A DNA stretch of 64,000 nt, taken from positions 124,046-188,045 of the forward strand of contig JAKSOL010000003.1 of assembly GCA_024405635.1 (NCBI GenBank), given 5' to 3'. Shown piece after piece: positions 15,206-21,714 of the stretch (positions are counted from its first letter, which is position 1; every line of letters starts with the position of its first letter). Both the position numbers and the translations under genes were made by a program. The DNA is from Salinivirgaceae bacterium (lineage in GTDB: Bacteria > Bacteroidota > Bacteroidia > Bacteroidales > SZUA-534). Under the pieces are notes generated by a model, which had not been told where the DNA came from, did no database searches, and was given only the letters and a program-made list of their open reading frames with translations.

Positions 15206-15279
15206 GGTGCGGTAGTTCAGTTGGTTAGAATATCGGCCTGTCACGCCGGGGGTCGCGAGTTCGAGTCTCGTCCGCACCG
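15206..15279 (+). tRNA. tRNA-Asp(GTC), CCA not encoded
   Basis: Acceptor GGTGCGG/CCGCACC, D-arm GTTCAGTTGGTTAGAAT, anticodon loop CTGTCAC, T-loop TTCGAGT. Confidence 0.97.
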
Positions 15280-15280
15280 C

Positions 15281-15496: not shown

Positions 15497-17293
15497 GTGC
15501 AAGAGAAAATAATTGTATTGGATTTTGGTGGACAATATGCTCACCTTATTGCAAACAGAGTGCGCCGTTTGGGCGTTTTTACTGAAATTTGTTCTCCAAC
15601 AGCACCAGTTAGCGAACTGGTAGGAGCAAAGGGCATTATATATAGTGGTGGTCCTTCAAGTGTTTATGCTGAAGATGCACCAGAGTATAATCCTGAAATT
15701 TTGGACATTCCTGTGCCAAAATTGGGAATTTGTTATGGTCACCAACTTATGGCATCGCAGCTTGGTGGTTCGGTTCGACCAGGAAAAGTAAAGGAGTATG
15801 GCATTGCCGATCTTTTGCTAACAGAACCACAACATCCGCTTTTGAAAGATATTCCTGCATCGTCGCCAATGTGGATGAGTCATGGCGATGCTGTTGAAAA
15901 ATTGCCAGAGGGTTACAAAATTATTGCATCGACTAAAGATTGCCCAATTGCCGCTGTTGCACTTGATAGTCGAAAAATATATGGAATTCAGTTCCATCCC
16001 GAAGTAACTCACAGCAAATATGGCATGAAGATTCTTGATAACTTTATTGACATCTGTGGCTGCCAACGTACTTGGAACATGAAGAGCTACATGCCGCTTA
16101 TTTCCGAAAAAATTAAAAACGAAGTTGGCAATCGCAAAGTGTTCTTGCTTGTTTCGGGAGGTGTTGATAGTACAGTTGCTTTTGTGCTCCTAAACAAAGT
16201 GCTTGGAACCGACCGTGTTCTTGGCCTTCATATCGACAACGGTATGATGCGTATGGACGAGAGCCAAAAGATTATTGAGTTTCTTAACGCTTCGGGTATG
16301 AACAATCTTCGCGTTGTTGATGCAACCGATTCATTCCTTGGTCGTCTTGAGGGAATTACCGCTCCAGAAGAAAAGCGCAAGCGCATTGGTGCAACATTCC
16401 TTGTTGTTAAAGATGAGGAAATGGCTAAACTGAACCTCGATCCAAAAGAGTGGATGATTGCTCAAGGAACTATTTATCCTGATACTATTGAAAGTGGCGG
16501 CACAAAGAATGCCGACCTAATTAAAACCCACCACAACCGTGTGCAAGAGGTGATGGACTTAATGGCACAAGGACTTCTTCTTGAGCCACTTGCCGACCTT
16601 TACAAAGACGAGGTTCGTATGCTTGGCGAGGAACTTGGCATTCCTCACAATCTTGTATGGCGCCACCCATTTCCAGGCCCAGGCCTTGGCGTGCGCATGC
16701 TTTGCACCGATGGCAAAGGCGAATTTGCAACCAATGCCGAAGTGGCAGGTTTGGCCGAGTATTTGAAAGAAAACAACATTGAAGGCAAAGTGTTGCCAAT
16801 TAAGAGTGTTGGCGTGCAAGGCGACGGCCGCACATACGCGCAACCATTTTTGCTAACAACCAAAAACCTAACATGGAAGCAATGTGAGAAATTTAGCACC
16901 GAATTGGTAAACCGTTTTAAGGTGATAAACCGTGTTATTTGGCAAGTTGGCTCGGTAAGCGACGATGATCCAAAACTTGTTGAGCAATATGCAACCAAAG
17001 ACAAGTTCGACACCTTGCGCAAGTTTGACAACATTTGCACCGAGTTTTTGCAAGAGAACAACTTGTACGAGTCAATTTGGCAAATGCCAGTTGTGTTGGT
17101 TCCGCTTACAGTACAAGACAAACCTTGCATTGTGATGCGTCCAGTAAACAGCTCGGAGGCTATGACAGCCAACTTTGCCGAGATTGACCAAAAACTTCTT
17201 GAAGGACTTTGGGGCCGCTTTGTAGCCGAAGGCGCAGGTTCGCTTTGGTACGATGTTACCCACAAGCCTCCAGGCACTATTGAGTGGGAATAG
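15497..17293 (+). CDS. guaA: GMP synthase (glutamine-hydrolysing), long 598-aa form
   Basis: LDFGGQY, GICYGHQ, QFHPEV, SGGVDS, IKTHHN, HPFPGPGLG, KPPGTIEWE. Confidence 0.97.
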   Translation: MQEKIIVLDFGGQYAHLIANRVRRLGVFTEICSPTAPVSELVGAKGIIYSGGPSSVYAEDAPEYNPEILDIPVPKLGICYGHQLMASQLGGSVRPGKVKEYGIADLLLTEPQHPLLKDIPASSPMWMSHGDAVEKLPEGYKIIASTKDCPIAAVALDSRKIYGIQFHPEVTHSKYGMKILDNFIDICGCQRTWNMKSYMPLISEKIKNEVGNRKVFLLVSGGVDSTVAFVLLNKVLGTDRVLGLHIDNGMMRMDESQKIIEFLNASGMNNLRVVDATDSFLGRLEGITAPEEKRKRIGATFLVVKDEEMAKLNLDPKEWMIAQGTIYPDTIESGGTKNADLIKTHHNRVQEVMDLMAQGLLLEPLADLYKDEVRMLGEELGIPHNLVWRHPFPGPGLGVRMLCTDGKGEFATNAEVAGLAEYLKENNIEGKVLPIKSVGVQGDGRTYAQPFLLTTKNLTWKQCEKFSTELVNRFKVINRVIWQVGSVSDDDPKLVEQYATKDKFDTLRKFDNICTEFLQENNLYESIWQMPVVLVPLTVQDKPCIVMRPVNSSEAMTANFAEIDQKLLEGLWGRFVAEGAGSLWYDVTHKPPGTIEWE

Positions 17294-17305
17294 AAGATTT
17301 GTGAT

Positions 17306-17331
17306 ATAGAGGCGCCGAAAGGGGCCTCTAT
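17306..17331 (+). terminator. Hairpin after guaA
   Basis: ATAGAGGC...GCCTCTAT stem with GAAA loop; weak U tail. Confidence 0.55.
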
Positions 17332-17373
17332 TCGTATTTTGGGGGAATTGCAGAACGAAAAACATAACCAACT

Positions 17374-17448
17374 ATGGTAAGCAAATACAAAATAAATCTC
17401 CCCACAGAAAACGAATTACAAGATTATTTGTCGAAAATTGAAATATAA
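17374..17448 (+). pseudogene. Short relic resembling the C-terminus of a DUF1016/YhcG PD-(D/E)XK protein
   Basis: (PT)MVSKYKINLPTENELQDYL resembles my recollection of the SKYxxxLPxxxEL end of DUF1016 proteins; an in-frame stop lies just upstream. Confidence 0.35.
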
Positions 17449-17536
17449 ACAAATGAAAATTAAAGAATTAAAGTAATAAATAGAAATAATTTTAGACTAA
17501 CATATTATTAATCATAGCGTTTGCTATTTGTTCCAT

Positions 17537-17726
17537 CGAACTGAAACGTAGGAAATTTCAAAACTGATGAAGGAATAAAGACAAAAGTGCAAACGTCCGT
17601 CATAGGCGGGCGTCTCTTGTCGTTCCTTCTGGTTTCCTACGACCACAGTTCGGGCAGGTTTCGCCCGTTCTTTATGTCGTAGGTTGTAAGAAGGACATTG
17701 GCAATTCGCTTAATAGCAAGTTGCCA
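17537..17726 (+). promoter_or_regulatory. Structured leader upstream of the R-M gene (candidate cis-regulatory RNA)
   Basis: Five nested helices with G-U pairs, plus an alternative set of pairings; see findings. Confidence 0.55.
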
Positions 17727-19786
17727 TGGCGAAAAGTATTGAAGAAAAAATCGAGGATATTGCTAAAAAGCAACTCGACAGATTTGGTGTGAAGTATCAC
17801 ATAAAGACGGACAACATAAATAGCGAGATTGACAATGCTCTGCAAAGCGCAAAGTCAAAGTCGGGAAATGATGGAGGTAACTATCCCGACATCAAGTGTC
17901 TGATTCAGTTACCACAAAGTCAGAAGTTTGTTCCTGTAATGATAGAGGTTAAAGGAACAAAGGGAGATTTCGCAAAAATCGAGGATGGAGAGGTCGCCAA
18001 TTATGACGATAACGGCAAACCTATTTATAAACACATTAAGAAGTACGCTGTGAATGGGGCCGTGCATTATTCGGAAGCCATAGCAAAAATCACTAAATCA
18101 TATAGCGATGTTATAGCCATCGGATTCAACGGCTTTGATGCGTCGGGAAATGCTGAGCCGACAACAGAAATGGGTGTATATTATGTGAGCAAATCGAACA
18201 TGTATTGCCCCAAGAAGGTGGGAGATTACAGCGATTTCTCTTTCTTGAAGGCAGAAAATGGCTCGATTTTAGAGGAAAGGCTTAACGCCATACTGCTTTC
18301 TGACGAGGAAAAGGAACGCCAAACTCGTGAGTTGGAGGATAGAATTGAAAATACCCTTGCCGAACTTAATCAGGATATGCGAGACAAGATGCGTGTGTCG
18401 GAGCCTAAAGATCGATTGAAGTTGGTGTGTGCTTTGATAATGGCAGCTCTTGGCGTGGAAGGGAAAATTCCGCCTCTTGAAATTGCCGATTTAAGAGGTT
18501 TACAAACCGAAGATGACCACGATGGAGCTATTATTTTGCGAAAGATAAAAGTGTTTTTGAACGAAAAACATATACCACAAGAAAAGCTCGACAATATATA
18601 TTCGCTCTATAAAGGAATACTGAACGACGCTCTTTATTATCGGGCAATAAACGGCGAAAGCACGATAAAGACAGCCTTTATTTATGTGAAGGAAGAAATT
18701 ATGCCAATCTTTACTATGGGAGAGGAAGTGCATATTGATTTTACTGGAAAACTGCTCAATGTGTTGACAGGTTGGATTACGGAGCGTGCAAGTGATGATG
18801 AAAGAAATGATGTTGTGCTTACTCCTCGATATGTTACCGAACTGATGGCAAAGCTATGCAAAGTGAACAAGGATAGTTATGTTTGGGACTGGGCGACTGG
18901 CAGTGCTGGTTTTCTTGTCTCTGCTATGAAGTTGATGATTGACGATGCCAACAAAACAATCCAAAGCGAAGATGAGCGAAAAGCAAAGATTGCAAAGATA
19001 AAAGTGGATCAGCTGCTTGGTATAGAGCTTAGGCAGGATATTTATGTTCTTGCCGTGCTTAATATGATTCTGATGAAAGATGGTTCAAGCCACATCTTGA
19101 ATAAGGATTCGCTAAATGAATACAACGGAAAATATGAGCAGGGAAAAAATAAAGATGATGAGTTCCCTGCCGATGTGTTCCTATTAAATCCTCCCTATTC
19201 GGCGGAAGGTAAAGGTTTTGTCTTTGTAGAAAAGGCTTTGAATCGAATGAACAAAGGTCGTGCGGCTGTGATTATTCAGGAAAATGCAGGAGGTGGCAAA
19301 GGCGATGGCTTTACTAAAAACATTTTGAAGCATAGCACATTGTTGGCTTCCATTCGTATGCCAATAGATTTGTTTATAGGCAAATCGAGTGTGCAGACTG
19401 CAATCTATTTGTTCGAGGTGGGGACACCACATGATACAGAGAGTCTTGTTACATTTGTAGATTTTAGTAATGATGGTTATGCCCGACAGAACCGCAAGAA
19501 ATCAAACTCTAAAGTGAATTTGAAAGATGTGGATCATGTAAAGGAACGCTATGCAGAGTTGGTGGATATTGTACTTAATCGTAAGACAAAGACAAACTAT
19601 TACACTGAGGCGAACGGACTTGTGGTGAAAGATTCCATTTCGCTCGAAGGCAACGATTGGACATTCAATCAGCATCGCAAGATTGACACTATGCCAACCG
19701 AAGCAGATTTCCGCAAGACTGTTTCAGACTATTTGAGTTGGAAACTCTCAACCATCATTAAGGAGGACGCTGCAAATTTTCAGTAA
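17726..19786 (+). CDS. Fused restriction endonuclease / N6-adenine methyltransferase (BcgIA-like, Type IIB/IIG)
   Basis: N-terminal PD...IEVK nuclease motif; VVLTPRYV, DWATGSAGFL (motif I) and NPPY (motif IV). Confidence 0.9.
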   Translation: MAKSIEEKIEDIAKKQLDRFGVKYHIKTDNINSEIDNALQSAKSKSGNDGGNYPDIKCLIQLPQSQKFVPVMIEVKGTKGDFAKIEDGEVANYDDNGKPIYKHIKKYAVNGAVHYSEAIAKITKSYSDVIAIGFNGFDASGNAEPTTEMGVYYVSKSNMYCPKKVGDYSDFSFLKAENGSILEERLNAILLSDEEKERQTRELEDRIENTLAELNQDMRDKMRVSEPKDRLKLVCALIMAALGVEGKIPPLEIADLRGLQTEDDHDGAIILRKIKVFLNEKHIPQEKLDNIYSLYKGILNDALYYRAINGESTIKTAFIYVKEEIMPIFTMGEEVHIDFTGKLLNVLTGWITERASDDERNDVVLTPRYVTELMAKLCKVNKDSYVWDWATGSAGFLVSAMKLMIDDANKTIQSEDERKAKIAKIKVDQLLGIELRQDIYVLAVLNMILMKDGSSHILNKDSLNEYNGKYEQGKNKDDEFPADVFLLNPPYSAEGKGFVFVEKALNRMNKGRAAVIIQENAGGGKGDGFTKNILKHSTLLASIRMPIDLFIGKSSVQTAIYLFEVGTPHDTESLVTFVDFSNDGYARQNRKKSNSKVNLKDVDHVKERYAELVDIVLNRKTKTNYYTEANGLVVKDSISLEGNDWTFNQHRKIDTMPTEADFRKTVSDYLSWKLSTIIKEDAANFQ

Positions 19787-19813
19787 GCCCTCGTTTGACA
19801 AAACTCAAAGAGG
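19761..19813 (+). promoter_or_regulatory. Putative -1 programmed ribosomal frameshift signal
   Basis: AGGAGG (19761-66), in-frame A_AAT_TTT (19774-80), hairpin CCTC-G-TTTGA/TCAAA-GAGG (19789-19813). Confidence 0.6.
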
Positions 19814-21015
19814 ATTTTGAGGCAAGCGGGGGAGTTTGGAAAGAGTGGAGAATTGGGGATTTGTTTGACATACACCCGACTAAAGCATACAAGATGACTA
19901 ATCTTGATTTGTTTAAGAATAAAGGTGATATACCAGTAGTAACAAATTCAAGTGTAGAAAATGGTATTACCGGATATGTAAATTTGAAACCAACTGAAAA
20001 GGGTGGTATTGTTACATATAGTGACACAACTACTGATGAAGGAATATTTTATCAGCCTTATGATTTTGTTGGGTATTCTCATGTTCAAGGTGTTTATCCG
20101 TTGAAAACCTATAATTGGAATGAGGACAAGCTTTTGTATTTTGTTTCATTATTCAAGAAATCTGCAAAAGGTCGTTTTGATTATGCTAGCAAATTCAATA
20201 GAGCAATAGCAAAAGAAATGCTTGTGAATCTTCCAACATTCAATGGCGAGCCATCCTATTTCTACATGGAACAATACATCTCTTTGTTAGAAAAAGAAAA
20301 GATGCTTCAAGTGGATAAATTCCTAAAAGATTCTGGCTTGAATGATACCACACTTACTGTCGAAGAAACAGCTGCACTTGAAAAGTTTAGAAATGGAGAG
20401 GTGAAGTTTGTGGAGAGGAAGATAGGGGATTTGTTTGAAAAAGTCAAGTTAGGGATTAGTAATCCTAATTTTAATAAAAAAACTGATTTGTCTGCTTGCA
20501 AAGATTTAGAACACCCAATTCCTGTGATAAATGCAAAAATTGGAGATAATGGAATAATGTATTGGGCAAAGCAAGGAGATTTTGAGACTATTTCAAAGTG
20601 TATAGATGTTATTCAAAATGGAGCAATTGCTACAGGAAAAGTATATGCTCAACCTCAAGAAACAGGCGTGTTGTGGGATTCTTATTTGATTAAACATGTT
20701 AAAACAACTTTAGAAGATGAACAACTTTTTTTCTTTGCGACAGTCATAGAAAAATCAATACGATTAAAATTTTATTATGATTGTAAGGCTTACTGGAATG
20801 AAGTAAAAGAAGAATTTATTATGTTGCCTTGTACTCTTGATAATGACATCGACTACACCTTTATGCAACACTTTATATCGGCTTGGGAGAAGTTGGTGAT
20901 GAGAGGTGTGGTAAAGTATAAGGACGAGATGTTGAATGCTTATGACAAAGCATTAGATTTTGCTGTGGCAGCTGAGCAAATGTTAAATTATGGACAAAAA
21001 TCAGAATTTTTATAA
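19795..21015 (+). CDS. Restriction-modification specificity (S) subunit with two TRDs; no ATG start, possibly made as a frameshift fusion
   Basis: Two repeats starting WKEWRIGDLF and FVERKIGDLF, each ending LP...YxxM.xxI; lies in the -1 frame of the upstream gene. Confidence 0.85.
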   Translation: MTKLKEDFEASGGVWKEWRIGDLFDIHPTKAYKMTNLDLFKNKGDIPVVTNSSVENGITGYVNLKPTEKGGIVTYSDTTTDEGIFYQPYDFVGYSHVQGVYPLKTYNWNEDKLLYFVSLFKKSAKGRFDYASKFNRAIAKEMLVNLPTFNGEPSYFYMEQYISLLEKEKMLQVDKFLKDSGLNDTTLTVEETAALEKFRNGEVKFVERKIGDLFEKVKLGISNPNFNKKTDLSACKDLEHPIPVINAKIGDNGIMYWAKQGDFETISKCIDVIQNGAIATGKVYAQPQETGVLWDSYLIKHVKTTLEDEQLFFFATVIEKSIRLKFYYDCKAYWNEVKEEFIMLPCTLDNDIDYTFMQHFISAWEKLVMRGVVKYKDEMLNAYDKALDFAVAAEQMLNYGQKSEFL

Positions 21016-21086
21016 ACTTGTCTTCAAAACCTTCTCTACTGAAAACTTTTGTGCGTTTTTGAAAAAGACGCCCACTCACTAACAAC

Positions 21087-21117
21087 CAAATCGTGTCGAA
21101 ACACTCGGCACGATTTG
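21087..21117 (+). terminator. Hairpin closing the R-M insert
   Basis: CAAATCGTGTCGA/TCGGCACGATTTG stem. Confidence 0.5.
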
Positions 21118-21237
21118 CTTTACAATATCTCTGTCCTTTTAGGTTGTTAACTTTCCGATGATAAAAATAGTTTTCGGAATAAAAATAATACCAAAGAATT
21201 GGTTTTCTTTGCTCATTGAAAGTAACGGCAAAAATGA

Positions 21238-21714
21238 ATGGACAACAATTCGAGAATAGACGCGCTTGACAGAAAGATTTTATCGATAATATCGAAGGAT
21301 GCGCGCACGCCATTCCTTGAGGTGGCTCGAGAGTGCGGAGTGTCTGGTGCTGCCATACACCAACGTGTTCAAAAGCTTGTCAACATGGGCGTTATTATAG
21401 GCTCGGAGTTCATTGTTAGTCCTCAAAGCATGGGATACAAAACATGCGCTTTTGTGGGCATCAACCTAAAAAAGGCTTGTCTTTATCAAGACATAGCCGA
21501 AGAGTTGGCCAAAATACCGGAGATAATTGAATGCCACTACGTTACCGGCAACTACTCGCTCTTTATTAAAGTGATGGCACACGATAACGAGCACTTGCGA
21601 AAGATACTATCAGACAAGTTGCAACGACTCGATATTGTGGAGCGCACTGAGACCATCATCTCGCTTGAGGAGAGTTTCCGCCGACAATTCCCAATCGATT
21701 TAGCAGAACAATAA
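21238..21714 (+). CDS. asnC: Lrp/AsnC family regulator
   Basis: [35 protein letters not shown]; ECHYVTGNY. Confidence 0.9.

Follow-up and report, generated by a model that had tools for sequence, protein, structure and literature searches.

How is the specificity subunit of a restriction-modification (R-M) system translated when its reading frame offers no ATG? This question is raised by a BcgI-like gene pair in a stretch of 64,000 nucleotides (nt; hereafter the window) from a Salinivirgaceae bacterium (GenBank assembly GCA_024405635.1, contig JAKSOL010000003.1, positions 124,046 to 188,045). There, a gene encoding a combined nuclease and methyltransferase subunit (RM) overlaps a frame for a specificity subunit (S) with two target recognition domains (TRDs). 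The RM open reading frame (ORF) ends in GCA AAT TTT CAG TAA, while the -1 frame opens at 19762, directly behind a TAA (19759-61), and runs to 21015. The elements in question, in window coordinates, are as follows.

17726..19786, plus strand: RM gene, BcgI-alpha-like, 686 amino acids (aa), assigned from PADLOC, Pfam N6_Mtase, invariant motifs and an alignment with the phage phi-42 protein
19762..21015, plus strand: S (specificity) frame, in -1 phase relative to RM, with two TRD repeats and a helix before each
19761..19766, plus strand: AGGAGG resembling a Shine-Dalgarno (SD) sequence, ending 7 nt ahead of the heptamer (8 nt ahead of its second base); may act as a 5' stimulator
19774..19780, plus strand: slippery heptamer A_AAT_TTT, in the RM frame and in X_XXY_YYZ phase
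19784..19786, plus strand: RM stop codon, one codon past the heptamer
19788..19832, plus strand: conserved stem-loop (arms 19788-19797 and 19823-19832) that begins 7 nt past the heptamer and is the predicted 3' stimulator
19795..19797, plus strand: TTG (Leu) within the 5' arm of the stem; the sole ATG, GTG or TTG ahead of TRD1

The answer we favor, with a probability of roughly 0.87, is programmed -1 ribosomal frameshifting, which would yield both RM (686 aa) and a fusion, RM~S, of 1,096 aa (685 + 411, with S read from 19780 after the shift). The heptamer and the stem would together make a fraction of ribosomes shift by -1 into the S frame: ribosomes would pause at the stem while tRNA-Asn and tRNA-Phe, paired with AAU UUU, re-pair to AAA UUU, the A-site re-pairing being cognate. 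Unshifted ribosomes would terminate one codon past the heptamer and release free RM. A first-pass annotation of this DNA had proposed the same two products, with a fusion of ~1,095 aa. Direct reading bears out its description of the RM end, of the AGGAGG and of an S frame that is open in -1 and has no ATG before its first TRD motif, and the comparison with relatives supports the recoding itself. An in-phase heptamer with an open -1 frame is the arrangement of dnaX/IS3-type sites. As a check on chance, 1,146 long ORFs of the genome were inspected; a heptamer falls within the final six codons of 85, and 13 of these have a -1 frame open for at least 100 codons, but only the R-M locus adds a stem of -14 kcal/mol or lower.

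The comparison took in 160 related loci and the window, 161 in all, of which 154 were used. Seven rows were dropped: L073 (RM off the contig end), L160 (no usable match), L065, L097 and L005 (truncated or cut, although L005 does carry the heptamer), and L055 and L137 (no intact adjacent S). Loci were grouped by the frame of S and the presence of an ATG, blind to the heptamer, the ATG-less class having none within -30 to +21 of the RM stop. Where S is in -1, all 74 loci that lack an ATG carry an in-frame heptamer within the last six codons (58 strict motifs and 16 G_GAT_TTT or G_GTT_TTT), compared with 4 of the 12 that have an ATG; where S is in +1 or 0, the figure is 1 of 58. In-frame fusions make up the other 10 of the 154. 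Clustering at 90% identity gives 26 of 26 (-1, no ATG) against 1 of 29 (+1/0), and the background frequency is 1.2% per codon (235/19,279). The first-pass annotation had looked to homologues for a conserved -1 overlap and heptamer, and both are thus present throughout the ATG-less -1 class. The heptamer and stem were seen in records named Bacteroidota, Bacillota, Pseudomonadota, Melainabacteria and Spirochaetota.

The motif itself varies: among 78 loci it is G_GGA_AAA in 43, A_AAT_TTT in 17, G_GAT_TTT in 14, and G_GTT_TTT and G_GGA_AAG in two each. It changes with the encoded residues (NF, DF, VF, GK), and the third base of the preceding codon co-varies (GTA AAT versus GTG GAT). All 29 cluster representatives carry a heptamer, versus 5.7 expected from the amino acids and the codon usage of the gene. 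Judged by these comparisons, selection acts on the nucleotide motif beyond the protein. According to the available text of an Escherichia coli motif survey, the most efficient motifs there are H_HH.U_UU.Y and V_VV.A_AA.R (PMC4066793); A_AAU_UUU and G_GGA_AAR fall under these patterns. Across the 65 distinct heptamer junctions, the gap between heptamer and RM stop is 0 or 1 codon in 60.

The second element is the stem, which in the window folds at -18.2 kcal/mol (z score -3.45). All 65 junctions fold it (mean -21.2 kcal/mol, mean z -4.2, z below -1 in 65/65), whereas 56 other junctions average -6.9 kcal/mol and a z of -0.1, with 12 of 56 below -1. This predicted structure is conserved and stands close to the 5-8 nt downstream given for stimulatory structures in the available text of PMC4066793: it begins 7 nt past the heptamer here and 4-7 nt past it in 65 of 65 junctions (6 nt in 43), regardless of loop length. 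In 25 equal-length junctions, which were chosen for their long-stem type and whose relatedness inflates the result, 90.5% of cells in the outer helix are paired and 4 of 11 pairs show two-sided changes. On three of the five measures, the outer helix outscores every one of 500 shuffles; it also outscores slid controls, and RNAalifold recovers the same helix. The 9-bp bulged hairpin at 19789-19813, which the first-pass annotation had taken to be the downstream structure, was rejected as the stimulator: paired cells make up 60%, a result that 437 of 500 shuffles match, and the hairpin arises only with the sequence cut at ~19825 (-8.7 kcal/mol, z -0.9). The longer helix replaces it, and the signal thus extends beyond the end first assigned to it. 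No terminator-like site was found at the RM/S junction, and a search of 17300-21300 against Rfam gave no match at E <= 1.

Transcriptional slippage could give the same products as frameshifting if RNA polymerase added a base at the A/T run, so that some mRNAs encoded an in-frame fusion. The site is A/T-rich, and an RNA stem can act on polymerase too. Nevertheless, the longest homopolymer at the site measures 3-6 nt in 65 of 65 junctions (4 nt in 46), the motif is always in codon phase, and the position of the stem is near the ribosomal spacing of PMC4066793. We regard slippage as extremely unlikely.

Could S instead be made separately? Under this explanation, ribosomes would re-initiate at TTG 19795 or another near-cognate codon, the stem would enforce coupling, and the heptamer would be incidental. 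The TTG is in frame and lies 8 nt past the RM stop, within reach of a terminating ribosome, and coupled starts are the rule in the family's other half. Free S can also function, as in the engineered Helicobacter pylori JHP1364/65 system, to go by the available text (PMC3936762). However, although 28 of the 65 junctions have an ATG, GTG or TTG ahead of TRD1, the other 37 have none, and no candidate start is common to the junctions. The codon at the position of TTG 19795 is TTG in just 18 of 65, being CTT, TTA, CCT or others elsewhere; the independent start that the first-pass annotation had entertained is therefore not conserved. Moreover, the context of this TTG folds at -13.4 kcal/mol, more stable than ~99% of 946 host start regions, and re-initiation leaves the survival of the heptamer through amino-acid change unexplained. 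Re-initiation is, in our estimate, very unlikely.

Frameshifting was first proposed with a third element, the upstream SD. SD-like pairing of -6 kcal/mol or better occurs, at variable spacing, in 55 of 65 junctions, compared with 25% of control windows. It is weaker in the remaining 10, which comprise a Prevotella clade and others (L023, L025, L026, L032, L079, L083, L085-87 and L115), and the SD was accordingly rejected as an essential part. The three-part signal of the first-pass annotation is thus best described as heptamer plus stem with an optional SD. Mean SD strength is -7.6 against an expected -5.8, arising mostly from K-E/G-E residues. A caveat had been that Bacteroidetes rarely use SD pairing, and host starts are indeed depleted in SDs (1.9% of 946, versus 8.0% of internal ATGs). 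The caveat is nonetheless weaker than feared, because host prfB (L162:1514-1530, C1) retains a +1 frameshift site with AGGAGG 3 nt before CTT TGA C, which suggests that elongating host ribosomes can still use an internal SD.

A further explanation holds that the junction is a broken in-frame fusion, caused by mutation, assembly error or phase variation, and that S is unexpressed. In-frame fusions do exist among close relatives (P0010-P0012, 86-89% identity), and H. pylori homologues are reported inactive in the available text of PMC3936762. These closest fusions, however, consist of RM plus one TRD, another architecture. Of the 154 loci, 78, from at least five phyla, share the -1 offset, which is identical in eight named genomes at 93-98% identity, and S frames are intact over 370-590 codons. 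Contigs from other runs (X3 records 16 and 18; X6 record 22) bridge the junction with 0 gaps among the matches listed, and these show no sign of the indel that the first-pass annotation had wished to see excluded. The site also has no long homopolymer or simple repeat of the kind that drives phase variation or slippage. A broken gene is the least likely of the three rivals, all of which are rated low; each fails a comparative test.

In-frame fusions are informative in their own right. The 10 among the loci have one TRD each, and in 10 of 10 with DNA no junction-near heptamer is followed by a stem of -14 kcal/mol or lower. The concern that homologues might be in-frame fusions was thus justified insofar as some exist, but heptamer and stem are lost where DNA was compared. 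The statement that all in-frame fusions have one TRD, which held for 10 of 10 loci and four near-length proteins, was dropped because 18 longer in-frame proteins, most of them assigned to Campylobacter upsaliensis and one to Helicobacter himalayensis, combine RM with two or three TRD matches. Most natural in-frame fusions of 1,207-1,378 aa have the linker SPRL...F...GG.W, as does the predicted shift product here; the predicted RM~S thus resembles proteins that exist in nature. In a quick tree built from 73 RM C-termini, the three forms (frameshift, own-start and fused) are intermixed, with 12, 9 and 9 changes, respectively (7, 4 and 7 forced by starred branches). Junction type therefore appears to have switched repeatedly, and no order of events is claimed.

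Several observations weigh against frameshifting as the explanation. RM~S is known here as a prediction from sequence. The 154 loci are related and mosaic, so the counts overstate independence, and the groups used for the stem and the codon expectation were selected by heptamer (the frame/ATG grouping was not). When CTG, ATT, ATC and ATA are counted as starts, just 8 of 65 junctions lack a candidate. G_GAT_TTT gives poor P-site re-pairing. The SD excess over codon expectation is modest (22/29), and its spacing of 7-8 nt falls below the stimulatory 9-14 nt of PMC5009743 but inside the 6-17 nt upstream of PMC4066793, as far as the available text of each paper goes. A fusion is not needed for activity, because the engineered free S worked for JHP1364/65 (PMC3936762, available text). 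Finally, two-TRD in-frame fusions have no evident source of free RM, which weakens the argument from subunit ratio.

That argument runs as follows. One free RM and one RM~S would assemble into an enzyme with 2 RM : 2 TRD, and, since free RM would pair with RM~S, S would never be in excess of RM. That the frameshift sets a 2:1 RM:S ratio is offered as a hypothesis, because an exact 2:1 needs ~50% shifting, and the highest value in the E. coli survey, in its available text, is 54%, with a pseudoknot (PMC4066793). More broadly, and tentatively, at somewhat less than even odds, a widespread branch of BcgI-like systems may pair free RM with RM~S in a heterodimer, reaching two RMs and two TRDs per complex, with both chains coming from a single gene whose shift is tuned close to one-to-one. 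If so, BcgI with its two genes and AloI/CjeI with their single chain would be joined by a third, intermediate architecture; recoding would account for expression of the H. pylori HP1472/HP1471 systems described as "start-less, inactive"; and free RM may be released from some two-TRD in-frame fusions by the same signal run in reverse.

The identity of the two proteins is in keeping with a BcgI-like enzyme. RM matches PADLOC REase_MTase_IIG (E 4.9e-177) and Pfam N6_Mtase; P54 D55, E74, K76 and NPPY 488-491 are invariant in 22 homologues. It aligns over its whole length with the phage phi-42 RM (29% identity, 681 columns), whose neighbours carry the bcgIA annotation. RM is thus a predicted single chain with an N-terminal PD-(D/E)xK-type nuclease and a gamma-class N6-adenine methyltransferase. 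The S frame matches Type II specificity subunits. Its structure model (mean pLDDT 83.5) contains two TRD repeats, each with a preceding helix; the stem region codes for the first of these helices (residues 6-17). Structure comparison finds the model similar to BsaXI chain 8w0p_C and to S subunits of Type I systems. As modelled, S is Type I-like, with two tandem TRDs and long helices as in BcgI-like systems; sequence searches of the PDB returned Type I M and S proteins and nothing else. The G+C content of S is 34%, versus 41% for RM. The TRD-coding segments 19860-20230 and 20436-20845 are substituted in other-run contigs with the flanking helices kept, a pattern consistent with TRD swapping. 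A C-terminal add-on takes 33 of 72 complete frameshift-class S frames past 460 aa, versus 0 of 64 in the own-start class. In L007 and L090, we take this add-on, by eye, to resemble an S24 peptidase domain; in L030, L042, L043 and L049, it is another domain.

The R-M pair lies between what we take to be a guaA-like gene (15497-17293), preceded by a tRNA-Asp (15206-15280), and a gene for a presumed AsnC-type regulator (21238-21714). The leader before the RM start (17525-17728) is highly structured (-74.3 kcal/mol, z -6.6) and includes a terminator-like hairpin at 17651-17667; it could delay or limit RM expression. Upstream of the leader, a ~44-nt motif (17490-17533) has six further copies in the genome: five on C31 (62138-66039), each directly before a gene, with four of these genes forming a run of similar-looking ORFs, and another at C1:236934. 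The motif may be a promoter or a dif-like cassette site.

The relatives and the start regions of the host suggest a member of Bacteroidota. Occurrence of the pair among relatives is patchy. Matches were found in 6 of 60 closer relatives at E <= 1e-10, and 400 other genomes of the phylum gave 0 matches at E <= 1e-20. E. coli also has the system with its signal: 29 of 5,426 genomes carry it, as does a phage of this species (L165, L168, L169). Matches spanning over 80% of the query occur as prophage copies in 20 of the 5,426, and these copies make the system directly testable. E. coli copies, which lie outside the 154-locus counts, carry G_GGA_AAG and A_AAA_AAG, followed by stems that fold at -23.3 and -18.1 kcal/mol, and their records annotate the S start 69-75 nt past the RM stop. 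If frameshifting operates, annotated S proteins of this class begin at wrong internal codons.

Frameshifting would also explain a published oddity, namely S genes that lack a start. For H. pylori HP1472/HP1471 and JHP1365/JHP1364 (Hpy99XXII), the RM stop has been described as "without a potential start codon" for S (PMC3936762). An engineered start together with G-tract repair activated the JHP system and not the HP one; the authors considered the systems inactive, and frameshifting is not proposed in the available text of that paper. Two of its joint-repair primers can be read as C_CCA_AAG, one codon and a stop, followed by G-P-L-N-S-Q-L, which, as compared through these two primers, is similar to the linker of the G_GGA_AAG class. 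Deletion of HP1471 impaired colonization, according to the available text of PMC4209511, which fits with S being expressed. Elsewhere, frameshifting was tested in an unrelated C-REase fusion and none was seen (PMC3850674, available text). We found no description in the literature of frameshifting between RM and S in these systems, although survey supplements may list the family: the available text of PMC3711429 does not name it, but a supplement row gives a "DNA methylase" GeneTack cluster of 59 genes that may include it. The available text of PMC3874209, PMC12666383 and preprint 10.1101/2021.04.16.440249 contributed nothing further.

The R-M enzyme here is thus of a known kind, whereas its recoding signal, strongly conserved in the sequences compared, was not found described. 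To our knowledge, few chromosomal bacterial genes are known for programmed -1 frameshifting (dnaX, copA and magnesium chelatase). The present case would add a defense-enzyme family from at least five phyla, whose several heptamers under one stem lend themselves, as a natural series, to comparing the rules of frameshifting from phylum to phylum. With dnaX and IS3 it shares, going by partial texts, the in-phase X_XXZ_ZZN heptamer, a structure 5-8 nt downstream and perhaps the optional upstream SD. It differs in residing in a defense-enzyme gene, in using several heptamers across phyla, and in an SD that is shorter-spaced and not universal. The shift here would extend a short product into a fusion, as in IS3; the dnaX shift yields a truncated product.

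Among R-M systems, the pair has the gene order of BcgI-like Type IIB/IIG enzymes, in which a nuclease-methylase (RM) gene precedes an S gene with two TRDs. The S genes of phi-42 and of roughly half the relatives begin at an overlapping start of their own, whereas here S has no ATG and sits behind the heptamer and stem. BcgI, BsaXI and the phi-42 system are 2RM:1S enzymes in the available text of PMC3874165. By domain order, the predicted RM~S is likened to AloI and CjeI (which, like TstI, are RM~two TRDs), and the relatives include one-TRD fusions likened to HaeIV (RM~one TRD). Unlike in these single-chain Type IIB enzymes, the same gene would here also give free RM, which is absent from the TstI homotetramer (PMC4027205, available text). 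How RM~two-TRD chains manage with one RM for two TRDs is called "a mystery" in the available part of a review (PMC3874165), and a gene that would make both free RM and RM~S bears on that question.

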